Below are positions 5,500-61,900 of a stretch of 64,000 bases of DNA, piece after piece (position 1 is the stretch's first letter; each line of letters begins with the position of its first letter). The notes under the pieces are model-generated. The model was not told the origin of the DNA. It did not search any database and saw only the letters and a program-made list of their open reading frames with translations. Made by a program: the position numbers and the translations under genes. This stretch comes from an uncultured Gammaproteobacteria bacterium (GTDB lineage: Bacteria > Patescibacteriota > Microgenomatia > UBA8517 > JACQJR01), in the NCBI GenBank assembly GCA_964442455.1, contig CAYTZB010000004.1, forward strand, positions 7,425-71,424. The letters run 5' to 3'.

Positions 5500-7336
5500 T
5501 ATCCTTCAATTTCAACTGGACTTTTTTGTTTCCATTCCCACCTTCGCCAAGGCTGCTTCCTTCGCCGACCTGCGCTTCGCCGAAGGCTCCGGCGAGGCGA
5601 GAGTGGCTACGGAGGCCGAGTCGGCGGGCAGGCCACTCATCAATTTCAATCGTATACGCAATATCAACTGGTTTGTCTGGTGAAAGTTGTGAATAAAGCT
5701 CGCCCATTCCAAAACCGATAGCATTAAAAGTGATTAGTGATTGACCTCCGGCTCTGGAGAGCCTCCCACCGGGGCTTGAGCCCCTCTGGAGCGGAGCCTG
5801 GCTCGGAGAGTTATTAGTGATTAGTAATTTCAAGTGTTGGTTCTCTCTGCCCACAAGCCGTGCATCTTTAAACAAAACTCCTCGTGTTACAAACACCGGT
5901 CCAGGATTACCAACGCCAAAAGGGACAAACTTTGCAACTTCTTGTGCAAGTGCAAGGTTAACAACAGAGAGTGGAATTTCACACTCAATGCGAATTTTAG
6001 GCGTCAAGTGCTCATCGGTTAAATTTCCATCCGCATGATCTTTAAAAGCTTGTGAAAGTAATTCCAAATGTTGGGTCTTGACCGTAAATCCGGCAGCCAT
6101 AGCATGTCCCCCACCCTCAACCAAAAATTCACGAGCACGATCAAGAAGTTCAACAATATTAAATCCAGAAACCGAACGTGCCGAACCCCGAGAAAATTCC
6201 TCTCCTTTTGAGACAACAATTGCAGGTCTTCCAAATTCCTCAACAAGCCGAGAGGCAACGAGTCCCACAATCCCCTCATGATAACTCTCATGTGCGACAA
6301 AAATCAGCCCTGCCTGCGCAGGCAGGCCGCCATCGCTTTTTAACACCTGTTCTCTTGCATGAAACACACTATCCACCACCATTTGTTGGCGTGTTCTATT
6401 TGTTTCATTTAATTGAAATACCAACTCTCGTGCTTTGGTAGTACTTTTTGTACAAAGAAGCCGCAACGAACTAAGTGCATGCTCCAGTCGTCCTGCGGCA
6501 TTCAGTCGCGGTGCAAGCAGAAATCCAACTTCATATGTTCCAATCTCTTTTTGGTTTATCCCAGCAACTTGGCACAAAGCGACAATCCCCGCTCTGGTTG
6601 TTTTTTGCAAGACAGTCAATCCATGAAATACCAAAGAGCGGGCAGGACCAATGAGTGGTACCATATCGGCAACCGTTGCCAATGCCACAAGCCCCAACCA
6701 ATCATCCCAACGATCAATTTTCAATTTTAAATTTTCAATTTTCAATTCCCGCGCAAGTACGTATGCCACCCCAGCTCCGGAAATCGCGGTCGTATGTAAA
6801 ATTGCAAACGCTTTCGGTTTTGTTTTTCGTGGCAGGTGATGATCGGTAATAATGACATCAAGTCCCAGCTCCTTTGCAGTATCGACTTTCTCGTGCGCAA
6901 CAATACCGTTATCAACTGTAATAATAAGTCCAACACTCGAATCCTCTTTTTTTAACTGCTTCATCCGAGGAATATTCAAGCCATATCCTTCAGTTCTTCG
7001 CTCTGGAATAAAAGGCAAGGCATTAACACCGCTATAATAAAGTGCTTCCCATAAAATCGCTGCCCCGCAAATCCCATCCGCATCGTAATCTCCCCACACT
7101 ATTACTTTCTCACCAGTCTTTTTTGCTTTTTCTATTCTTTTAATTGCTTTTCTTAATTCTTTGGAGTCAATCCCAAAATCGCGAGCGGTCAGTTTGTCTG
7201 GATGTGTCGGGGCAAAAAATTCTTTCTCTTGGGCTTTGGTTTTAATCCCACGATTCTCAAGAAGAATTTTTATTATGCCCGTGGTACTTTTGCTACCTGT
7301 GGTACTCTTTTTACTTACTATTTCCCATTTTTTCAT
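5486..7336 (-). CDS. recJ: single-stranded-DNA-specific exonuclease RecJ (DHH family) with two in-frame GC-rich insertions near the C-terminus
   Basis: The DHH motif (VIITDHH) is present together with DHHA1-like and C-terminal OB regions. Length is 616 aa. Confidence 0.85.
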   Translation of the reverse strand: MKKWEIVSKKSTTGSKSTTGIIKILLENRGIKTKAQEKEFFAPTHPDKLTARDFGIDSKELRKAIKRIEKAKKTGEKVIVWGDYDADGICGAAILWEALYYSGVNALPFIPERRTEGYGLNIPRMKQLKKEDSSVGLIITVDNGIVAHEKVDTAKELGLDVIITDHHLPRKTKPKAFAILHTTAISGAGVAYVLARELKIENLKLKIDRWDDWLGLVALATVADMVPLIGPARSLVFHGLTVLQKTTRAGIVALCQVAGINQKEIGTYEVGFLLAPRLNAAGRLEHALSSLRLLCTKSTTKARELVFQLNETNRTRQQMVVDSVFHAREQVLKSDGGLPAQAGLIFVAHESYHEGIVGLVASRLVEEFGRPAIVVSKGEEFSRGSARSVSGFNIVELLDRAREFLVEGGGHAMAAGFTVKTQHLELLSQAFKDHADGNLTDEHLTPKIRIECEIPLSVVNLALAQEVAKFVPFGVGNPGPVFVTRGVLFKDARLVGRENQHLKLLITNNSPSQAPLQRGSSPGGRLSRAGGQSLITFNAIGFGMGELYSQLSPDKPVDIAYTIEIDEWPARRLGLRSHSRLAGAFGEAQVGEGSSLGEGGNGNKKVQLKLKDIKFD

Positions 7337-15349: not shown

Positions 15350-15895
15350 CTAATGGTCTAGAATAACTGTCACTGGACCGTCGAGTTCCGTTGAAATTTC
15401 CATATATTCTCCAAATCTTCCAGTTTTTACTTTTACACTTTGCGCTTTTAGCTTACTTATGACATCCTCCCCGCTTTGAAAAGCGGGGTTTCCTCTAAAG
15501 GAGGATGACATATCAGCGTTCAATTCATCTCCCGACTGAAAGTCGGGAGTTTTCTTGAATGCTGTTATAAAGTATTCATATAAAGGTTGGGCAATTTCGG
15601 GGCGGGCGGCTTTTACGAAGCTGGGGCGGTTGCCACCGGAGGTATCAGCATACAACGTAAATTGTGAAACAACAAGCATTTCTCCACCAACATCGTTTAC
15701 TGTTAAATTCATCTTTCCTGTCTGATCAGACATTATTCGTAACTTTGTTAGCTTTTCCGCTAAAAATTCAGCGTCTTTTTCTGTATCTCCATCTTTTATT
15801 CCCACTAACACAAAGAGTCCCTTTCCAATTTTACTAACAATCTTTTTGTTAACGGAAACAGATGCCGAAGAAACACGCTGGACGACACATTTCAT
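15350..15895 (-). CDS. dtd: D-aminoacyl-tRNA deacylase carrying a roughly 30-aa in-frame insertion
   Basis: The SQFTLYAD motif, the N-terminal MKCVVQRV region and the C-terminal GPVT motif are present. At 181 aa it is longer than the typical ~145 aa. Confidence 0.85.
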   Translation of the reverse strand: MKCVVQRVSSASVSVNKKIVSKIGKGLFVLVGIKDGDTEKDAEFLAEKLTKLRIMSDQTGKMNLTVNDVGGEMLVVSQFTLYADTSGGNRPSFVKAARPEIAQPLYEYFITAFKKTPDFQSGDELNADMSSSFRGNPAFQSGEDVISKLKAQSVKVKTGRFGEYMEISTELDGPVTVILDH

Positions 15896-19900: not shown

Positions 19901-20318
19901 CGTCAAGGAGCAGGACAATCGCCCCACCCTTTCTGGTTGGGATCAAATAGGAAGAAAATCGTGATCGGAAAGGGTGGGGAGGAAAGTCCAGGCAGCAGGA
20001 AGCAGGGGACCCCGCGTAAGCGGGGACGGGTACCCTTCGACGTAGCTCAGGGTAGCCTGAGTAAAATCGAAGGCTAACCGCTAGTGGTCCTTCACTGAAA
20101 AGTGTAGGACACCAAACCTGAATTGACAGGGTTGGAGAGTCACAGAGACGATCATTAGTCTAAACCCTGACGGGTATGACCAATGAGTGAAACGCTGACA
20201 ATCCTCCCCGCTGCAACCTCCGAATGGTCCGCTATCAGGATGCTTCCCCGAGGACCAAAGTTGAGGGCACAGACAGATGATTGTCTAGAACAGAACCTGG
20301 CTTACTCGCTCCTTGACA
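19901..20318 (+). ncRNA. rnpB: RNase P RNA, bacterial type A
   Basis: It contains the conserved GGAGGAAAGTCCAGGC (P4 5' strand region) and ACAGAACCTGGCTTA (P4 3' strand). The 5' GTCAAGGAGC pairs perfectly with the 3' GCTCCTTGAC to form P1. The region is GC-rich relative to its flanks. Confidence 0.8.
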
Positions 20319-20451
20319 AATTAAACTATAAATAGCACGAGCAAGGTTCCCGAAGGGGTTCTTACTCGCTCCTTGGCAAAAATACTATCTAGATAATGCG
20401 AGCAAGAGGAGCGTAGGCTGAAAGCCGAGAACTCTTACTCGCTCCTTGACC
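20301..20451 (+). repeat. three direct copies of the 18-nt rnpB 3'-terminal P1 strand (cttactcgctccttgRca) at 20301, 20361 and 20434
   Basis: The copies are exact or 1-mismatch. Their spacing is irregular (60 and 73 nt) and the spacers contain short hairpins. Confidence 0.5.
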
Positions 20452-35691: not shown

Positions 35692-36111
35692 TTATTTTTT
35701 ATTTTCTAATTTCTTAGTCTTAGACTTAGACGCTTCATCCTTAGTTTCAACTTTTTCCCTACTCCACATAAGTCGCACCATTGGCGCATTATCTCCCGCT
35801 CGTCGCCCAGCGCGAACCATTCGGGTAAAGCCACTCGAGAGGGTAGCAAATCGAAGTTTTACTTCCTCTTCTAATTTGGCAACCGCACGCTTATTGTGTG
35901 CAAATTCAGACAGAAGTGCTCGTCTGGACGCGAGTGTTCTCTTCTTCGCAAGGGTAACTGCCTTATCAATTAAGGGTTTAACAGCTTTCGCACGAGGGAG
36001 TGTTGTTTCTATCGTTCCATGTTCTACCAATGAGACCACTAATGCACGGAAAAGCGCCGCTCGAGCGCCCGTATCTCTTGAAAATTTTCTCCCCATTACA
36101 TGCTTTTTCAT
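35692..36111 (-). CDS. rplQ: 50S ribosomal protein L17 (start at MKKHVMGRKF; the ORF-track N-extension is discounted)
   Basis: L17 family conservation is present, and it is the last gene of the alpha operon after rpoA. Confidence 0.85.
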   Translation of the reverse strand: MKKHVMGRKFSRDTGARAALFRALVVSLVEHGTIETTLPRAKAVKPLIDKAVTLAKKRTLASRRALLSEFAHNKRAVAKLEEEVKLRFATLSSGFTRMVRAGRRAGDNAPMVRLMWSREKVETKDEASKSKTKKLENKK

Positions 36112-36165
36112 TGAACATTCTTTTATATATCTGTTTAACCTTAGGTTAACTATACCGCAGGTCAA

Positions 36166-38428: not shown

Positions 38429-38872
38429 TTACTTTTGTTGTCTTGCTTGTCCGGTCTGCTCGCCTCGCACTGAGGCGGGCTGGCGGGTTTGCATTTTTGC
38501 AAGCGTTTCTTTCTTAAATGCTCCAACAGTCCTTCTCTTTCCACGCTTGGTACGAGCATTGGTTCTTGTCCTTTGACCTCTAACCGGCAACCCTCTCTGA
38601 TGTCTCACACCACGATATGATTTTATCGTGACGAGTCGGCCTATATCTTCTCTCACGGACCTCTGTAAATCTCCCTCAATTATTATCCCCTCCAAGGCCT
38701 TTGTAAGGTGATTTATTTGCTCGTCGGTGAGCTCTTTAACTCTGCGCTCTTGCGGAATATTCACTTTTGTAAGAATCTGCCGGCTCATAGGCCACCCGAC
38801 CCCATACAAAAGGGTGAGTGCATAATCTACTCTGGCATTCTCTGGTAATTCAACTCCTGCTATCCTAGCCAT
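38429..38872 (-). CDS. rpsM: 30S ribosomal protein S13 with a ~30-aa GC-rich C-terminal extension (start at MARIAGV; the upstream ORF-track extension is readthrough into the repeat)
   Basis: The S13 N-terminus MARIAGVELP is present. The C-terminal tail is encoded by GC-rich hairpin DNA at 38441-38500. Confidence 0.9.
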   Translation of the reverse strand: MARIAGVELPENARVDYALTLLYGVGWPMSRQILTKVNIPQERRVKELTDEQINHLTKALEGIIIEGDLQRSVREDIGRLVTIKSYRGVRHQRGLPVRGQRTRTNARTKRGKRRTVGAFKKETLAKMQTRQPASVRGEQTGQARQQK

Positions 38873-39001
38873 ATAACCTCCTTCGGAGGAAATCCGAAAT
38901 TCTAAATCCGAAATACGAAACGTTTCGAATCTTATATTTTTATAATTTGTTTCGGATTTCGATATTCGTGCTTCGAATTTCCAACTTTGCACACAAAGTT
39001 G
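38873..39001. repeat. family-A palindromic repeat, copy c, between rpmJ and rpsM, including a perfect 8-bp-stem hairpin CCAACTTTGCACACAAAGTTGG
   Basis: It is visibly similar to the copies at 28995, 35110 and 58784. Confidence 0.45.
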
Positions 39002-47199: not shown

Positions 47200-47634
47200 T
47201 TATTTGCTTTCTGTCTGCAGTCTACCGACTACAGCCTCAGCTGGCTTAGGTGAATTAGCATCTTTCCTCGCTGTAGGCTGTGGTTTTTCAGCAGTAGACT
47301 CACCCTCCTTTGTCTCCAAAACTACCCTTATATGACTTGTCCTCTTTAAAATTGGTTGGGGCCTCCCTACAGAACCGGCTCTCCCTCGCTTGAGACGAGG
47401 CCCCTCATTAATCTGGATTTCTTTTATCATTAAAGGGGTACTCACTCCTCGGCTGCGAGCATTTGCGAGTGCTTGTTTTATCGTTTTGAGCAGTGGTAAT
47501 GCTGCTTGCTTTCTAACAAAAGAAAGGGTAGTAAGTAATTTATCCGGATCTTCTATGCCCTTTATAGCACGTGCAACTACCCTCAATTTGAGAGGACTCA
47601 TTCGTAAATATCGTTGTTCAGCTTTGATTAACAT
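47200..47634 (-). CDS. rplV: 50S ribosomal protein L22 with a ~30-aa C-terminal extension
   Basis: It belongs to the L22 family. Confidence 0.9.
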   Translation of the reverse strand: MLIKAEQRYLRMSPLKLRVVARAIKGIEDPDKLLTTLSFVRKQAALPLLKTIKQALANARSRGVSTPLMIKEIQINEGPRLKRGRAGSVGRPQPILKRTSHIRVVLETKEGESTAEKPQPTARKDANSPKPAEAVVGRLQTESK

Positions 47635-48776: not shown

Positions 48777-49082
48777 TTATACTTTCCTTTTTCCTCCTTT
48801 TTTCTCTGTTGCAAAAAGATCAATTGTCTGTCCTTTCTCCAACTCCACAATTGCCTTCTTTATATCAGAGAGTTTTTTTACAAGACGCCGCCCCCCAAAT
48901 CGCCGGGTTTTTCCAGAAATTTTAACTGTCTTGACACCTTTTACCTTTACGCCAAAGGCGTTCTCGACTACATGAGTAATTTGGTTTTTGTTTGCACTGG
49001 CTACAACCTCAAAGGTAAACTTACCAGCCTCTGCGTCCTTTTTTGATTTCTCAGTTATCAACGGTCTTAAAAGTATGCTCAT
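48777..49082 (-). CDS. rplW: 50S ribosomal protein L23
   Basis: It belongs to the L23 family. Its ATG overlaps the rplD stop (ATGA). Confidence 0.85.
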
Positions 49083-49789
49083 ATTTTCTTTACTCTCTCT
49101 TTAATGACATCCTCCCCACTTTTCAAAGCTGGGTTTCCTCGCGCCGCCGGCATAGCCTTTGGCGACGCACGGCTAAGGGAGGCTTTCATCAATTCCAACC
49201 CAGCTATTGTCAAAACCACATTTGGGTGGTTAATCACCTCATATGCATTCACGTCGCTGGCAGGCAGTAAAGTTATTCCTGCTATGTTACGAGCACCTTG
49301 TACAAACGCTTTTTCTCCGCCGTGAAGAATCAACAGTCGCTCGCTTTCTAAACCAAGCTTTTTAAGTAACCCGACAATTGATTTTGTTTTTCCATCTATC
49401 TCTTTTGGGTCAATAAAGAATAGCTTATTCTCATCCAACCGTCTTGATAGCGCAACAGCAAGTGCCGCTCTTATAAACTTTTGTGGCAAGTGTCGCTTCC
49501 TCTTTGCCCCGACTGGACCATGAACCACACCTCCGCCAACAAATATCGGGGCTTTTTTCATTCCGTGACGAGCACGACCGGTCCCTTTCTGACGGTATAT
49601 TTTTGCAGTACTCCCCGCTACTTCCCCTCGCGTTTTCGCCTTATGGGTACCAGTATGAGCTCTCGTCTGATAGACATAGTAAGCTTGGCTCAGCAGCCTA
49701 TCATTCGGTTTTTGCCCAAAAAGCTCGTCTGGAAGAGAAATTTTCCCAGTACTCTTCCCTATTGGTGTGTAAACAGCAACTTGTTTCAT
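49079..49789 (-). CDS. rplD: 50S ribosomal protein L4 with a ~30-aa C-terminal extension that contains a copy of the dtd-type GC-rich element
   Basis: The L4 family core is intact. The tail RASPKAMPAARGNPALKSGEDVI is encoded by 49103-49185. Confidence 0.9.
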   Translation of the reverse strand: MKQVAVYTPIGKSTGKISLPDELFGQKPNDRLLSQAYYVYQTRAHTGTHKAKTRGEVAGSTAKIYRQKGTGRARHGMKKAPIFVGGGVVHGPVGAKRKRHLPQKFIRAALAVALSRRLDENKLFFIDPKEIDGKTKSIVGLLKKLGLESERLLILHGGEKAFVQGARNIAGITLLPASDVNAYEVINHPNVVLTIAGLELMKASLSRASPKAMPAARGNPALKSGEDVIKERVKKI

Positions 49790-50631
49790 TGACTTTGCGC
49801 CCTTTCGGTGTTCTGCTCACTCGGCACTCTCTCTGCGTTCTGCTCTTTGCCTTCTTCATTCTCTTTATCCTCTTCCGAGAGCTTAATGGATGGGAGTTCT
49901 TCCGGATGAATCTCTTCTCCTCTTGTTACCAGTGGCGAGAATTTTTCATTTTTTCCGATTTTTTCTATAGAGAGAAGTCCCCCAGGATTTCCGGGAACAA
50001 GGCCAGAGAGTTTCACTTCCCCATCTTTGCCAATCTCAAGCACAGTAAGATTGCGTACGGTTGCTGTTTCTGCCCCCATTCTTCCTGCCATTTTCTTTCC
50101 TCTCAAGACGCGACCCGGGGTAGTTGTTGCACCAATCGAACCAGGGGCACGCTCACGGTCTGATTGTCCGTGGGTTCGTGGTCCCCCGGCAAAATGCCAT
50201 CTCTTGACAACTCCCGCAAACCCTTTTCCTTTGGAGATACCGGTTACTTTTACTAAATCGCCAGGGGAGAGCACATCCGAAGCTTTTATGATATCTCCTA
50301 TTTTTGGTTGTTGTTTGTTGGTTGTTGTTTGTTGGATTTTTACTTCTCTTAAGAATCTTGGGAGCTTTGTGTTTTTTCCAGTCTTGAGTTTTTGAAGATG
50401 CCCTCGCATTGGCTTTGTAATATTCTTAATTTTTCTTTCTTCAAATCCAAGTTGCAAAGCTTCATAACCGTCCTTTTCTTGCGTTTTTATTTGCGTCACC
50501 ACGACAGGTCCGGCCTGTATAATAGTGATGGGTACTCTTTTACCGTCCTCTGTCCAAGCCTGTATCATTCTCTTTTTTGTTGCTAAAATGGTATTAATCA
50601 TACCCTCTCCGGTTATCTCTAATTCCCACAA
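49786..50631 (-). CDS. rplC: 50S ribosomal protein L3 with an internal Q/T-rich tandem-repeat insertion and an acidic ~40-aa C-terminal tail (start likely 50601, MINTIL)
   Basis: The L3 family core is intact. The DNA repeat ggttgttgtttgtt occurs twice at 50306-50333. Confidence 0.9.
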   Translation of the reverse strand: MWELEITGEGMINTILATKKRMIQAWTEDGKRVPITIIQAGPVVVTQIKTQEKDGYEALQLGFEERKIKNITKPMRGHLQKLKTGKNTKLPRFLREVKIQQTTTNKQQPKIGDIIKASDVLSPGDLVKVTGISKGKGFAGVVKRWHFAGGPRTHGQSDRERAPGSIGATTTPGRVLRGKKMAGRMGAETATVRNLTVLEIGKDGEVKLSGLVPGNPGGLLSIEKIGKNEKFSPLVTRGEEIHPEELPSIKLSEEDKENEEGKEQNAERVPSEQNTERAQSQ

Positions 50632-55330: not shown

Positions 55331-55858
55331 TTAGGCCATTAAATCTCTTACTGGAACTACTCTCTGATTCTCTGGATTTCCTTTTACTCTCTCAATGAAT
55401 TCAGCAGGAGTTAATGCTCTAATTCCTCGTAACTCTAAAAACTTCCTAGCACCTGGTAAATCAACAATTGCAAGTATGAGCTCTTCTATTGCTTTTTGGG
55501 GGATTCTTCCTTTGTCAAATGGGAGTAACCTATCCTGATTTAAGACAATTGTGGCATATGCCTCATCTTTTTTGTCTGCTGGGAAAATTATTGCTGCTTT
55601 GGAAAAAGAAGAAAGTTCTCCTTCTCCTACGAGCCAAAACTCAGCATCACGAGCTTCCATTATTCTCTGGGTCTCTTTTGCCAACGGTGTAAACGCATCC
55701 TGAGTCTCACTTTCTGCTAAAACATGGATTATCTCACTCGCATAATCGATAAGCAGCTGGATCATCTGATGTAGCTGTTCGACTCTACCAGGAGTTAGGG
55801 GAATACCAACTAATCCCCTCATTTTACCGTGTCTTATAGACAAAAATTCGTTTCCCAT
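55331..55858 (-). CDS. hypothetical protein (175 aa), island ORF D
   Basis: It is an intact ORF with no recognisable family, followed by a hairpin at 55294-55316 and the terminator. Confidence 0.45.
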   Translation of the reverse strand: MGNEFLSIRHGKMRGLVGIPLTPGRVEQLHQMIQLLIDYASEIIHVLAESETQDAFTPLAKETQRIMEARDAEFWLVGEGELSSFSKAAIIFPADKKDEAYATIVLNQDRLLPFDKGRIPQKAIEELILAIVDLPGARKFLELRGIRALTPAEFIERVKGNPENQRVVPVRDLMA

Positions 55859-55916
55859 TGTATAACTTATTCGAGATTATACACCCACCCTGGTTGCCAT
55901 TGCCAGGGAGAAGTAA

Positions 55917-56273
55917 CTACTTGTTGTAGAGGAATATTTTTAATCCAATGTTCGAGTCCATACTGTGTTGCGCTTTTAGTGGTTCCACCTCTTCCGGGGG
56001 ATGACGCGTTAAATCACCATAATCACACTCTCGAAGTCGTGCATCCTTAATTATGGGAATATTTCTTCCTTCAAAAGCAATTTTTGCGGTAGTATACGAT
56101 CTCTGTAGATCGGAGCAAAAGATAGCATCAAATTGTTCATTTTTATGCCGTTCACCTAGCTGCTTCGCTTGCTCTTTCCCAAGTTCTGATAACTCAACAT
56201 CAAAGTGCCCCGAAGAATGTTTGCTCTCGTTATCAAGCGACGTCGCGTGAGGTTCAAAAACTATAGTAACCAT
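55917..56273 (-). CDS. histidine-phosphatase-fold (SixA/PGAM-like) protein, truncated and degenerate (118 aa; PHA in place of RHG)
   Basis: The N-terminal beta-strand plus EPHATS aligns to the RHG motif, and CSDLQRSYTTAKI aligns to the SPLxRAxQTAxI block. The C-terminal half of the fold is missing. Confidence 0.4.
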   Translation of the reverse strand: MVTIVFEPHATSLDNESKHSSGHFDVELSELGKEQAKQLGERHKNEQFDAIFCSDLQRSYTTAKIAFEGRNIPIIKDARLRECDYGDLTRHPPEEVEPLKAQHSMDSNIGLKIFLYNK

Positions 56274-56523
56274 CAGAAGATTTTATCTGCTCTTCCATAA
56301 ATTTACCATAAATTCTTATGGTAAGTCGTTGAATAATTTGATAAAATAAGGTACGCCTGCCACATTGCAGGCTCTTTTTGCAAAGGGGCTTTCTTTGACA
56401 TTCTTGCACTGTGGCATTGAACAAGAGGGCTGCCTTTTAAACCTCTTGTTTTTTGTGGCAGGAAGCAAGAAATTGTTTTTATTAATAATTTTTTGAATTT
56501 ATTTGTTTCGATGTATCGATACA

Positions 56524-56928
56524 TTAAAACATAACTGTGGGATTGTTAAGTGTTACGCGGAAGTCACTTTTACCTACCCTCAGTCTCTCTAGATCATAGG
56601 GAAATCCAGATAGGGCGTAATACTCTTCACCTTGTTTGTTCACCTTTCTCCTTAATTCATGTAACACACGACGGCCATCATGAGTTGTAAGAATGGCTGA
56701 TGGAACAAAACCTTCTGTGCTTTGATCCACACGGAATAAGGCGAGGAGTACTTGTTGTTCTTGTTCTATCTCCTTTAACAACACACCATCTAACCTTCCA
56801 TCACTAATCAAATTTACTACTCCTTCGAAGACTAAACCATTTGTCTTGTCTTCAACGCGAATGACCCCTGAAAAAGTTGATGTAATCTCTTCTCTGTTCT
56901 TTGTCCCATTACCATTTTTTTCCCTCAT
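56524..56928 (-). CDS. hypothetical protein (134 aa), island ORF B
   Basis: It is an intact ORF. Its stop overlaps the start of a doubtful 73-aa ORF (TAATG). Confidence 0.4.
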   Translation of the reverse strand: MREKNGNGTKNREEITSTFSGVIRVEDKTNGLVFEGVVNLISDGRLDGVLLKEIEQEQQVLLALFRVDQSTEGFVPSAILTTHDGRRVLHELRRKVNKQGEEYYALSGFPYDLERLRVGKSDFRVTLNNPTVMF

Positions 56929-56973
56929 ATCTTACTCCTATCTCTTTTCTTTGCAATAGCTGGCTAAGAAACT

Positions 56974-57693
56974 CTAAGAGCTTTGGGTAATAATCCGTAC
57001 CGGTTGGAATAGTAGTGCATTCCTAAGTGCTGTTGCAACAAATTCGTCAGGGCTAGGAAGTGACAAACTACCGTATTCTGTCTCAATTACTCTCGTGTTC
57101 GTTGCAAAGTCTGTTCGTAATCTTCCAGGCCCAAGATGCAAATGTTCTTCAGTTGGCGTAATTGTTACCAGCTCATATTCTACCTCTCCAACTCTTAATA
57201 AAAGTTGTGCAAGAGGAGACCTATTTTCTTCAAAAACAAATATCTGTCTTGCATGTTCGAATGAACTACCGCTCAGCATAATAGGAGGAGAAGCATCTTG
57301 CGTTATTAAGACTCCACCTCTTAAATCAAGAATAGTGAACATATTATCTTTTAATCCGTTTTTGGATGTATCCGAAATGACTTCAACTCCTACTATTTTT
57401 CCATTTGATCGACTAATTACTAAGTCTGTTGTTGTTCTTTCGTGTTCAGATTGATGATAAAATGAAACTACATCCTCTCTTTCTCTTTGTACCTTTTTAA
57501 CATCATATCGTATTCCCCTTATTTGCGCCCCTTTGCTTCTATCTGTGAGAAGTTTATGATTTTGGTTAACATAATCGAGATGTTGTGAAAATCTTGTGCG
57601 AATCGCTTGGGGAATACGTGCAATCTGTGCTTGGGTAAGAGGAAAATATACTAATTGATTCTCAGGAGAGAGAGTACTTTCTGGTCTTGTCAT
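56974..57693 (-). CDS. hypothetical protein (239 aa), island ORF A, starting 10 nt after the rpsG stop
   Basis: It is an intact ORF with no recognisable family. No terminator separates it from rpsG. Confidence 0.5.
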   Translation of the reverse strand: MTRPESTLSPENQLVYFPLTQAQIARIPQAIRTRFSQHLDYVNQNHKLLTDRSKGAQIRGIRYDVKKVQREREDVVSFYHQSEHERTTTDLVISRSNGKIVGVEVISDTSKNGLKDNMFTILDLRGGVLITQDASPPIMLSGSSFEHARQIFVFEENRSPLAQLLLRVGEVEYELVTITPTEEHLHLGPGRLRTDFATNTRVIETEYGSLSLPSPDEFVATALRNALLFQPVRIITQSS

Positions 57694-57702
57694 AGAGGAT
57701 GA

Positions 57703-58182
57703 TTACCACCTAAAATGACTGAATGCACGGTTTGCTTCTGCGACTCTTTCGACTTCTTTTTTCTTTGCAATCGCACCACCCTGACCTTTGGAAGCATCCA
57801 AAATTTCAGCAGTAAGTTTGTCGGTAAACGTATGGTAATCTTTATTTGGGCGTTTTTGCGCCGCAAGAATCAACCAGCGAATGGCCAACGACTCGCGTCG
57901 CGGGCCCCGCACGGGAATGGGCACCTGGTATGCTGCACCCCCAACTCTGCGTGGCCGGACTTCCATTGTCGGTTTTATCTGCTCAACAGCAGACAAGAAT
58001 ACTTTGAGGGGATCCTCTCCTGTCTCCTTCTGCATCGCCTCAAAGGCACGGTATACAAGACCTGCGGCTACCGACTTCTTACCGTCGTGCATAATTCGGC
58101 TGATGAGCTTGGCCACAAGTTTGTGGCCATAAACCGGATCTGGTGCAATAGTTCGCGCTGGTACTGGTCCTCGTCTTGGCAT
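57703..58182 (-). CDS. rpsG: 30S ribosomal protein S7
   Basis: It belongs to the S7 family at 159 aa. Confidence 0.95.
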   Translation of the reverse strand: MPRRGPVPARTIAPDPVYGHKLVAKLISRIMHDGKKSVAAGLVYRAFEAMQKETGEDPLKVFLSAVEQIKPTMEVRPRRVGGAAYQVPIPVRGPRRESLAIRWLILAAQKRPNKDYHTFTDKLTAEILDASKGQGGAIAKKKEVERVAEANRAFSHFRW

Positions 58183-58291
58183 TGTCCTCTTTTTAGTCGT
58201 AAATATTACAAATACTACAAATTACAAATTTCAAATATTCTGAATTCTTAATTGATTGGTATTTATTTGTCATTGGTATTATTGGTACTTA
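58183..58291. repeat. family-C AT-rich repeat in the rpsL-rpsG spacer (see 46474-46565)
   Basis: It shares the blocks atactacaaatt..tcaaat, attggtatttatt and ggtacttatt. Confidence 0.45.
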
Positions 58292-58783
58292 TTAAGAAGC
58301 ACTAGCTTCCTGTATTACTGCTGCAGCTCTAGGCGCTCCCCCTCCCTCCGGGCCAGAGGTCCCTCCGGGCCGGCGGCCCTCACGTCGTGTCCCATATTGT
58401 GAACGGGAAGTCTTTCTTCCCACGACACCAGTGGTATCGAATTTCCCTCGTACAATATGATACTTAACCCCTGGAAGATCTCTTACACGACCGCCTCGAA
58501 CCAAAACTATCGAATGCTCTGCCAACTCGTGTCCTTCTCCTGGGATATAGGCAGTAACCTCTTGTTTATTCGAAAGTCGCACACGGGCAACTTTACGCAG
58601 CGCTGAATTCGGTTTCTTGGGGGTCATCGTGCGGACAGCCAATACCACTCCCCGTTTAAAGGGGCTCGGTAGTTGGGAAAACCGTCGCCGTCTCGCATTG
58701 AACCAACGCCGCAACGCCGTACTTCGGCTCTTTCCATGCACTTTTCTCCTTCCCTTTCTGGTGAGTTGATGAATCGTAGGCAT
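58292..58783 (-). CDS. rpsL: 30S ribosomal protein S12 with an N-terminal ~12-aa insertion and a GC-rich ~30-aa C-terminal tail
   Basis: The S12 core is present ([24 protein letters not shown]). The tail [24 protein letters not shown] is encoded by the direct repeat ccctccgggcc at 58321-58375. Confidence 0.95.
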
Positions 58784-58941
58784 AAATAATTAAATCCGAA
58801 ATTCGAATATCGAAATCCTAAACAAATTCCAAATTTTAAATTCAAATGATTGAAACAGTTTGAAATTTAGAAAATTTGAATTTAATTATTGTTTCGAATT
58901 TCGTGCTTAGAATTTCGAATTTCCAAAATTATATCACAATT
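58784..58941. repeat. family-A palindromic repeat, copy d, filling the rpoC-rpsL spacer
   Basis: It is visibly similar to the copies at 28995, 35110 and 38873, with inverted arms ccgaaattcgaatatcgaaat / atttcgaatttcg. Confidence 0.5.
58928..58936 (-). promoter_or_regulatory. candidate extended -10 promoter (TGaTATAAT on the minus strand) for the str operon, directly after the rpoC stop
   Basis: The motif is read from the reverse complement. No convincing -35 was found. Confidence 0.3.
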
Positions 58942-61900
58942 TTAACCTCGGGACAATTGTTGAGAGGGAAGTGCTGCACGCTCCGGAGTCACGGGAATAA
59001 GGCGGCCAATAATGACATTTTCTTTCAAGCCCAACAATTTATCTTCCTTGCCAAGAAGTGCTGCTTCGGTCAACACCTTGGTCGTCTCTTGGAATGAGGC
59101 AGCAGAGAGCCACGATGCGGTAAAGAGGGACGCTTTGGTAATACCCAAAATAACCACCTGGGCGGTTGCTGGTTCACCTCCTGCCGCAAGCACTCGCTCA
59201 TTCTCTTCTGTAAACCACGCTTTATCAACCAATTCCCGTGGCAACAGGATGGTATCTCCAGGGCTAATCACCTGCACTTTATCACTCATTTTCCTGACGA
59301 TGACCTCGAAATGTTTGTCGTTAATAGGAATACCTTGACTCTCATATACCGCCTGGATTTCAGAGATAAGATACTCTTGAGAAGCAAGCAGCCCCCGAAT
59401 ATTCAGTACTTCTTTGACATCAAGCATACCTGACGCAAGCTGTGTACCCGCCGCAATGAGGTCGCCATCGGACAACCGCAGTTGGGCAGTCTTGGGAATA
59501 ATATACTCCCGTTCTTCCGGCGGTTTGACATCAACACTGCGTACTCTTACTTTCCAAGAATCTTCTCGCTCAACAACTTCAACTTTGCCTGAAATTTCAG
59601 AAAGCGGTGAGACCACCTTTGGAATACGAGTTTCAAAGAGTTCCTCGACTCGGGGCAATCCTTTGGTCACATCAAGTCCCACAATTCCACCGGTATGTTT
59701 CACTCTCATGGTCAACTGTGTGCCTGGTTCACCGATAGATTGAGCCGCAACCACCCCTACCGGGGTACCCACTTCCACCCGCTTTTTGGTGGCCAAATCC
59801 CATCCGTAGCAGGCAGCACACATACCATATCGCGCAATGCACGTGAGAGGGGAGCGAACTAACACTTCATCTATCTTTTCCTCCTCAAGGTGAGTGAGCA
59901 CCTCTTCTGTTATTTCTTCTCCCGCCCGCACTATAAAGTGTTTCCCATTCTTAAGAGGAATATTAACTGCTGCCGTCCTTCCTAAGAGCCGACCCGTAAA
60001 CGAAACTGACCTATCCTTTCTCCGCATGACTACCCCTTCGCTCGTCCCACAATCTTCTCCCCTTACAATCATATCGTGTGCGACATCGACAAGTCGGCGT
60101 GTCAGATACCCAGCATCAGCAGTCTTGAGTGCCTGATCGGTCAATCCTTTACGTGATCCACGAGCGGTGGTGACGTACTCAAAGATAGAGAGACCTTCCT
60201 TAAAGTTTGATTTGGTCGGCAGTTCTACCACTCTTCCAAGGGGATCAACTACCAATCCCCTCATTGCCGCAATTTGTTTAACCTGCTCTCGTGAAGCACG
60301 ACCAACCCCTGCTTCAATAATAACCTTAATAGGATTCGCGGGCGGGAACACCTCCCACGTTCTGTCTGCTAATTCCTCTGTCGCCTCAATCCACACTTCT
60401 TGTGTTAATCGTCTTTTTTCATCTTCAGTGATTAAACCCGATCGGTAGTTTTCTTCAATTTCTGCAACTTGGCTATTTGCCCCCTCTATCATCTTATCTT
60501 TCTCGGGAAGAATGACTGCATCGGTAATACCAAACGAGAGACCGGATACTGTTCCGGCAGCGAATCCAATATTTTTGATGTTATCAATCATTTCTAAGAT
60601 TTCCGCCCTTGACCCCCGTGCAAAGACTGTGTTAAAGAGACGTTTGAGTACCCCTGCCGAAACCGGCTCATTCACAAATTCCACCCACCCTGGCAAGAGT
60701 TCATTGAAGAGAATACGACCAACTGTAGTGGTTATCTTTTTACCCTCAAGAAGAACGTCTATCTCTTGGCGAACTCCAAGCTTGCCTGTTTGGTATATAT
60801 AGACCGCTTCGCCAGCATCACACAGGACTTCCCGACGAGCTTGTTCGGTGTTAACACTCGTTAAGTAATATACGCCGAGCGCCATCTCTTTTGTTGCAGG
60901 AATTGTAATAGGAGAGCCATCAGCGGGCTTAAGGAGATTGTGCTCCGGCAACATGAGAGAGCGGGCTTCCTCTTTTGCCTTTTCAGCTAGAGGTACATGC
61001 ACTGCCATTTGGTCTCCATCAAAATCCGCATTGTATCCTGCACACACACACGGATGAATACGAATGGCGTTTCCTTCAATAAGAACCGGATAAAATGCCT
61101 GAATACCCAATTTGTGGAGTGTCGGCGCTCGGTTCAGCAACACCGGATGATCCCGCGAAACCTCCTCCAAAATATCAAACACTTCGGGGAGCCGTTTCTC
61201 AAGCATACTCTTTGCACTTTTAACATTCGGTGCAATACCCTGCGTAATCATTTCTCGCAACACAAACGGTTTAAACAGTTCTAGGGCCATCTCCTTTGGA
61301 AGCCCGCACTGATGGAGCGAAAGTTCTGGTCCTACCACGATGACAGACCGACCTGAATAGTCAACTCTTTTCCCAAGTAAATTCTGGCGAAATCTTCCCT
61401 GTTTGCCTCGCAGCATATCCGAAAGTGAACGGAGAGGCTGGCGTGTTCTTCCGCGACGCATCGTTTGGCGCTGGCTTGCATCAATGAGCGCGTCGACTGC
61501 TTCCTGGAGCATCCGCTTTTCATTACGCAAAATAATCTCCGGAGCCCCGAGCTCCAGTAAATGACGCAGTCGGTTATTCCTGTTGATAATACGTCGGTAC
61601 AAATCATTCAAGTCACTCGTGGCAAATCTACCTCCTGAGAGCTGCACCATGGGCCGCAGATCGGGAGGAAGCACCGGCAATACCCGCAGCACAAGCCATG
61701 AAGGGGCACTTCCGGCTTTGCGCATTCCTTCAACTAAGCGCAGCCGTTGTGCAAGTTTTATTGCACGGCCTCCCATTGCTTCGTTGACTTGAGAACGAAG
61801 CTGAGCTGCTAACTCCTCTAAGTTGATACTCTCAAGAAGATCGGCTATAGCCTCAGCACCCATTTTTGCCACAAAGAATGACGCGACCTCGTGGTCAAAT

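Follow-up and report, generated by a model that had tools for sequence, protein, structure and literature searches.

In E. coli and B. subtilis the ribosomal protein S12 (uS12) stops 6–7 residues after its YG motif, a value with which the chain lengths found in a search of the PDB are consistent, and short mobile palindromic repeats residing in frame inside genes occur as the Rickettsia palindromic elements and as the GC clusters of yeast mitochondria. The uS12 proteins of the "long form", as those of S. aureus, B. subtilis and Mycoplasma, contain an internal region that is also present in almost all uS12 of the CPR; moreover, uS12 belongs to the ribosomal proteins listed as enlarged in CPR, and CPR-specific C-terminal regions are described for uS13 and uS15 (Tsurumaki et al. 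2022, PMC9297842). The uS12 analysed here is similar to the long form, which it matches without gaps over residues 1–134 and with an internal segment of the same length, whereas the solved uS12 of Firmicutes and Mycoplasma end 3–5 residues after the aligned core (135–139 aa) and are about 25 residues shorter. Its tail is a variable low-complexity appendage on a conserved core, comparable to the short extension at the C-terminus of Thermus uS12 and to the CPR-specific ends of uS13 and uS15, but it is rich in Ala, Pro, Gly, Thr, and Glu instead of Lys and is far more variable between close relatives. The likeness to the Rickettsia palindromic elements and the yeast GC clusters consists in a short, compositionally deviant segment lying in frame in an essential gene and presumably translated with it; in contrast to those elements, the segment in S12 has neither multiple copies in the window and the related loci nor a structure beyond its composition, and acts like a local duplication.

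The gene, rpsL, is located in a window of 64 kb (the whole stretch of DNA that was analysed, 64,000 nucleotides) and is flanked by rpoC and rpsG (Table 1). The membership of its product in the uS12 family is established by the Pfam profile PF00164 (Ribosom_S12_S23), which matches the ORF with an E-value of 1.5e-34 and 118.5 bits against a curated cut-off of 22.3, by the conserved motifs of the translation, including GGRV.DLPGV, and by the match to S. aureus uS12, which was obtained at 1e-51 in the search of all PDB chains.

The spacer between rpsL and rpsG (58183–58291) is AT-rich and 109 nt long, and contains three times ATTGGTATT together with a 30-nt imperfect inverted repeat that is 77% complementary. 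Upstream of rpsL, the region 58784–58941 is a very AT-rich spacer (15–28% GC) with many repeats of the GAAATTCGAA type, approximately 125 nt longer than the corresponding one in the sister locus L088, and a promoter-like TTGTCC-17-TATAAT with a TG extension is located at 58956–58928 on the minus strand. A terminator-like site was not found in 58100–59000, and on this ground the interpretation of the GC-rich stretch of S12 as a terminator or attenuator was rejected. The usual rpsL-rpsG-fusA order is broken by four non-ribosomal ORFs located in the rpsG-fusA interval (55331–57693, minus strand), which encode two proteins lacking a Pfam match (239 and 134 aa), a His_Phos_1 protein of 118 aa, and a protein of 175 aa with no match. 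Among related loci, L086 has a single ORF of 160 aa between rpsG and fusA, and in L083 and L084 other genes (DUF559 and others) follow rpsG, with fusA absent within 3 kb.

Table 1. Features of the window discussed in the text, with their coordinates and the basis of each assignment.
Feature	Position	Strand	Basis
rpsL (uS12) coding sequence, 163 aa and stop codon	58292–58783	-	ORF list, Pfam, match to S. aureus uS12
S12 residues 25–37, 13-aa internal region of the long-form uS12	58673–58711	-	Alignment, relatives, PMC9297842
C-terminal tail, 32 aa after the YG motif, lineage-wide low-complexity extension	58295–58390	-	161 relatives; orthology with L083
Organism-specific 33-nt in-frame insertion, 11 residues, 85% GC	58346–58378	-	Codon comparison with relatives
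17-nt repeat in two head-to-tail copies (plus-strand sequences TCCCTCCGGGCCAGAGG and TCCCTCCGGGCCGGCGG)	58343–58376	.	Repeat finder			
rpsG (uS7), downstream neighbour of rpsL	57703–58182	-	ORF list; Pfam Ribosomal_S7 on the identical gene in L081
recJ, 616 aa	5486–7336	-	
recJ insert, 21 aa (63 nt), 71% GC, SPSQAPLQRGSSPGGRLSRAG	5747–5809	-	Comparison with relatives
recJ insert, 32 aa (96 nt), 72% GC, PARRLGLRSHSRLAGAFGEAQVGEGSSLGEGG	5539–5634	-	Comparison with relatives

An N-terminal insertion of about 12 aa had been proposed in the first-pass annotation; the segment is instead an already known and published feature of CPR uS12. The gapless alignment of residues 1–134 with S. aureus uS12 was obtained in the search of all PDB chains, where B. 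subtilis and other Firmicutes and Mycoplasma chains of 135–139 aa have the same or nearly the same matched span in the match table. In particular, the 13-residue segment comprised between the ..AL and ..KRGV motifs shows no gap against the chains 5nd8_l, 8bh6_l, and 7p48_l; the Thermus chains, on the other hand, extend over positions 1–135 of the query with 122 residues, corresponding to a difference of 13 residues. The segment is carried by all the full-length homologues read (33/33), in which it is conserved as LRRWFNAKDRRFSELPSPF, and the version of the window is more Arg-rich than the consensus RRWFNAKDRRFSE. This region is common to Firmicutes, Tenericutes, Chloroflexi, and nearly all CPR and is inherited here; residues 25–37 count as additional only when S12 of the E. 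coli and Thermus type is taken as the reference.

The distribution of the C-terminal tail was described in the rpsL genes of 161 Microgenomates loci, extracted from species-representative genomes and metagenomes and including record titles such as Woese-, Gottesman-, Curtiss-, Levyi-, Ames-, Shapiro-, and Blackburnbacteria. In these loci the tail following YG measures 5–40 aa, with a median of 22 aa, and is at least 15 aa long in 75% and at least 30 aa long in 9% of the cases; the tail of the window is at the long end of the distribution that is normal among its relatives. An extension of Microgenomates type beyond the YG[TAS][KR][KR] end is present throughout the lineage. Among the best 120 homologues listed, 119 have a length of 135–203 aa and one is a partial sequence of 114 aa, those with a named source are assigned to Candidatus Microgenomates, Woesebacteria or Patescibacteria, and the S12 proteins of E. 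coli (124 aa) and Thermus (132 aa) are shorter than 119 of the 120. In a search of 50%-identity representatives for long uS12 outside CPR, most of the long hits read resembled read-through or frameshifted sequences more than true tails. One homologue (P0001, ENA, 203 aa) has an internally duplicated core, as if two different S12 sequences had been joined, and probably derives from a chimeric contig.

The tail had been counted as about 30 extra residues, and it is indeed present with 32 aa after YG, of which about 25 lie past the end of the E. coli and B. subtilis proteins. The further proposal, that the whole tail is an insertion produced by a process targeting the 3' ends of ribosomal-protein genes, is contradicted by the tails of 5–40 aa in the 161 relatives; an ancient, lineage-wide feature devoid of repeat structure in relatives, which the same annotation had considered as the opposite outcome, is largely what was found, for the tail as for the N-terminal segment. 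In support of an ordinary terminal extension, L22, L3, L4, S13, and L17 of the window have low-complexity ends that resemble C-terminal extensions; uS13, uL22, uL4, uL3, and uL17 are located at 38429–38992, 47200–47634, 49079–49789, 49786–50631, and 35692–36165, respectively, with uL22, uL4, uL3, and uL17 named by gene order and not by profile search. The listed ORF of uS13 probably starts too far upstream and its true start is likely the methionine of MARIAGVELP.

The tails of the relatives abound in Ala, Pro, Gly, Thr, Ser, and Glu, and are mostly neutral or acidic Ala/Pro/Thr/Glu sequences. In the 161 relatives the DNA encoding the tail has a mean GC content of 57%, and the gene body one of 45%; the tail always exceeds the body in GC because its residues use GCN, CCN, and GGN codons, and a GC-rich 3' end of rpsL is, in the sequences compared, the rule in the Microgenomates lineage. 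The core of the window S12 is 94% identical to that of L082, and the tail is unalignable past the first nine residues after YG (TRREGG..PR). The motif of this proximal part, T[RK][RK]EGG..APR, is conserved within a subclade; the tail is therefore not wholly unconstrained, and such conservation suggests that its first ~10 residues may have kept a contact with the ribosome. Confidence is poor throughout the AlphaFold2 model, with a mean pLDDT of 44.6 and the lowest values in the blocks of the tail (33–37), and with the core also below 50.

The same tail DNA, insert included, is present in GCA_016182755.1 (L081, contig JACPFY010000011.1), an independent assembly of the same organism that differs from the window by 3 mismatches in 3345 nt, none of which falls in the tail. 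This identity weighs against the possibility, already considered in the first-pass annotation, that the tail results from an error of sequencing or assembly, or from a missed frameshift, and that the true protein stops near the canonical end, a suspicion that could be raised by the error-prone nature of GC-rich repeats and by the contig of the NCBI assembly of the same organism, which begins inside rpsL. Besides the agreement of the two assemblies, the homologues listed read past the canonical end with the exception of the partial sequence, and the portion of the tail located 3' of the insert shares its frame with the orthologous tail of L083; an artefact is considered extremely improbable.

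Based on the codon comparison with the relatives, the sole new part of the tail in this organism is an insert of 11 residues, very GC-rich and repeat-bearing, which corresponds to residues 136–146 of the protein and is located between the RRE and GGGAPR codons. Its codons on the coding strand are GGC CGC CGG CCC GGA GGG ACC TCT GGC CCG GAG. In the sister locus L088, whose rpsL has about 94% nucleotide identity, the corresponding codons are ACA CGA CGT GAG GGA GGG GGA GCC (TRREGGGA...), and the window has ACA CGA CGT GAG followed by the 33 nt and by GGA GGG GGA GCG, exactly 33 nt more than L088. The flanks of the insertion, CGT GAG on one side and GGA GGG GGA GC on the other, are identical in L088, which has no insert; L082, L083, L084, L086, L163, and L167 are also devoid of it and show RREGG, 0–3 residues, and [AVK]P[RV]. 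Once the insert is subtracted, the tail of the window is orthologous to RREGGSSAPRAAVAPQEAPASQ in L083, and its part 3' of the insert is orthologous to and in frame with GGSSAPRAAVAPQEAPASQ of the same locus. The insert was observed in one organism among the ~280 relatives examined.

The GC content of about 70% attributed to the tail is a composite value, since the 33-nt core has 85% GC and the other 63 nt of the tail have 57% GC, equal to the mean of the relatives. The 60 nt at 58320–58379 reach 80% GC, more than any other 60-nt stretch of the window, whose mean is 44%.

The open reading frame, its tail, and the ccctccgggcc-type direct repeat reported inside it are all real, and the repeat, present twice in the window, extends to units of 17 nt. 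In fact, TCCCTCCGGGCC is found at 58343–58359 and at 58360–58376 with a period of 17 nt and 15/17 identical positions, and the 64-kb window has two exact copies of CCCTCCGGGCC and no more, at 58344 and 58361; when the 96-nt tail was shuffled 5000 times with its dinucleotides preserved, an exact repeat of at least 12 nt appeared in 3 cases (~6e-4). On the coding strand the two units, 16 and 17 nt long, read GAGGG-CCGCCGGCCCG and GAGGG-ACCTCTGGCCCG and are followed by GAGGG-A..., with GAGGG occurring three times, at the start of each unit and directly after the second. As 17 nt is not a multiple of 3, each copy is translated in its own frame, one giving RPGG and the other GPEG. Exact repeats of at least 10 nt are also present in the tails of three relatives (L042, L060, and L146), indicating that repeat-type expansion recurs in the S12 tail.

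The repeat was not found elsewhere, neither in the 64-kb window, where the 17-mer has no further copy when up to 3 mismatches are allowed, nor among the 170 related loci, of which the remaining 169 lack the 12-mer core. The fold of the repeat region of S12, compared with dinucleotide shuffles, has z = +1.33 (RNA, 81 nt) and +1.20 (DNA, 51 nt), and the 33-nt insert alone has z = +0.49, with no hairpin beyond what its composition gives. Two types of element were discarded, namely a dispersed element (RPE-, REP- or MITE-like), of which no extra copies exist in the 64-kb window or in the 170 loci, and a hairpin or palindrome element, since neither the S12 region nor the recJ inserts fold better than shuffles.

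The interpretation considered likely is that of a normal Microgenomates uS12, with its inherited internal region and tail, in which a disordered and fast-evolving tail underwent one expansion by slippage or duplication. The low-complexity tail, which every relative carries in another length and sequence, is inherited; it would be a disordered appendage under weak constraint, presumably with a passive role and no specific function, and would evolve mainly by small indels. In the lineage of this organism a single event would have added 33 nt between the RRE and GGGAPR codons, most likely through replication slippage or tandem duplication seeded on GAGGGA, and a 1-nt adjustment and two substitutions would have followed, with the downstream frame kept. 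The 17-nt copies are adjacent and absent from close relatives, the flanks found in L088 are intact, and the units open with the pentamer of the ancestral site, a pattern characteristic of slippage or of a tandem duplication that started from a short seed. GAGGG flanks the insert, yet it also constitutes the first five bases of each unit, and this arrangement fits slippage as well as a target-site duplication.

Other observations are less easily accommodated by slippage. As 17 is not a multiple of 3, a net gain of 33 nt needs at least two events or another one-step origin, and no intermediate allele was found among the ~280 relatives, which counts against this account; moreover, slippage leaves the 11-nt core CCTCTGGCCCG with no explained origin, and the presence of three GC-rich inserts in a 44%-GC genome is a bias that plain slippage does not predict.

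The insert splits the T[RK][RK]EGG..APR motif and adds two Arg, with a net charge gain of +1, and from its sequence it may have a modest functional effect. An adaptive origin would go further, attributing to the RGG-like segment RRPGG, beside the conserved RREGG, a stronger contact of the uS12 C-terminus with rRNA or a factor. The two Arg are indeed added beside a motif that is already basic and conserved in the subclade, and the N-terminal segment of the organism is also more Arg-rich than its consensus; nevertheless, the gain in charge is small, the tails of the relatives are mostly neutral or acidic, and the insert is confined to one organism among ~280 relatives, so that adaptation is regarded as highly unlikely.

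The composition of the S12 tail had also been likened to that of inserts in recJ and dtd, and a common insertion process had been suggested. The two inserts of recJ are absent from the closest relative (P0121, 84% aa identity) and from five more distant ones, and both occur again in the NCBI assembly of this organism. Over ~7 kb compared with the sister L169, the window-specific insertions of at least 6 nt measure 9, 12, and 27 nt, with ordinary or low GC, and 63 and 96 nt in recJ; the latter are the two largest of these insertions, and the S12 insert is the third GC-rich one.

Other features were noted in these genes. In recJ, a perfect 18-nt GC-rich palindrome, CCTGCCTGCGCAGGCAGG, at 6305–6337 encodes LPAQAG and has a fold z of only -1.6; LPAQAG is a 6-aa insertion common to P0121 and P0124 and absent from four other relatives. 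At ~6153–6251 in recJ, 14 nt, TGAACTTCTTGATC, are inserted in the NCBI assembly of this organism, which also shows a cluster of 12 SNPs there and has the gene broken into ORFs of 443 and 204 aa, likely as a result of strain mixing or of an assembly chimera. The dtd gene (D-Tyr-tRNA deacylase, 15350–15895, minus strand, 181 aa) has an internal segment of ~30 aa with a repeated FQSG(D/E)(E/D) motif and a SNP cluster between the two assemblies at 15374–15417; none of the listed high-GC islands falls in it. The GC island at 19971–20035 was rejected as a gene insert, as it corresponds to RNase P RNA; a bacterial RNase P RNA of class A is located at 19903–20320 on the plus strand, with 99.5 bits and E = 3.6e-31, just under the Rfam gathering score of 100, so that a scan at the default threshold passes over it.

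A genome-wide process that inserts short GC-rich segments in frame, for example a small GC-rich mobile element or foreign filler at breaks, corresponds to the first-pass proposal narrowed to the 33-nt core of S12, and would account for three in-frame and organism-specific inserts of 33, 63, and 96 nt, with 85%, 71%, and 72% GC, in a 44%-GC genome. All three are absent from sister species at 86–92% nucleotide identity, each occupies a variable terminal or surface region, and each is found again in a second assembly. A survivorship bias in favour of GC-rich DNA, as devoid of stops, was discarded as too weak for 3/3 inserts, since by a rough estimate 16–53% of random 44%-GC inserts of these lengths are stop-free. 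However, the S12 and recJ inserts, used as blastn-short queries against the 64-kb window, gave no match better than shuffled queries and have no mutual similarity, and the 17-mer and its 12-mer core have no other copy within the limits given above. Furthermore, none of the three inserts folds better than dinucleotide shuffles (z = +0.26, -0.72, and +0.49), a convincing target-site duplication was not found, and the recJ inserts have no plasmid matches, so that this common process is considered unlikely.

Two more specific proposals on recJ were discarded. A target-site duplication at recJ insert 1 was suggested by a 12/13 flanking repeat, which lies in a local AATCACT microsatellite, and the number of flanking residues is the same in the sister species; for a foreign origin of the recJ inserts, comparison with plasmids gave no match.

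A related and quite unlikely view is that an active and undescribed process in this groundwater Microgenomates bacterium places sequence-unrelated segments of 70–85% GC in frame, once in uS12 and twice in recJ. As one candidate mechanism, foreign DNA of high GC content, perhaps originating from a host, would be taken up at breaks under repair, and the filler would later have been duplicated to give the S12 repeat. As for the original comparison, the compositional likeness of the S12 and recJ inserts is real, and the 64 kb examined decides neither for nor against a shared insertion process.

What appeared as a targeted insertion corresponds to the ordinary, fast-evolving uS12 extension of Microgenomates, probably with one small and recent expansion, and the previous over-reading is corrected accordingly. 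Taken alone, the finding on S12 is largely ordinary and matters little; the three organism-specific GC-rich in-frame inserts in an AT-leaning genome are the one thread with some potential. For the CPR as a whole, E. coli is the wrong yardstick for ribosomal proteins, and the S12 insert would represent a documented case of a low-complexity tail of a ribosomal protein that grows by a short duplication, even in an essential gene.
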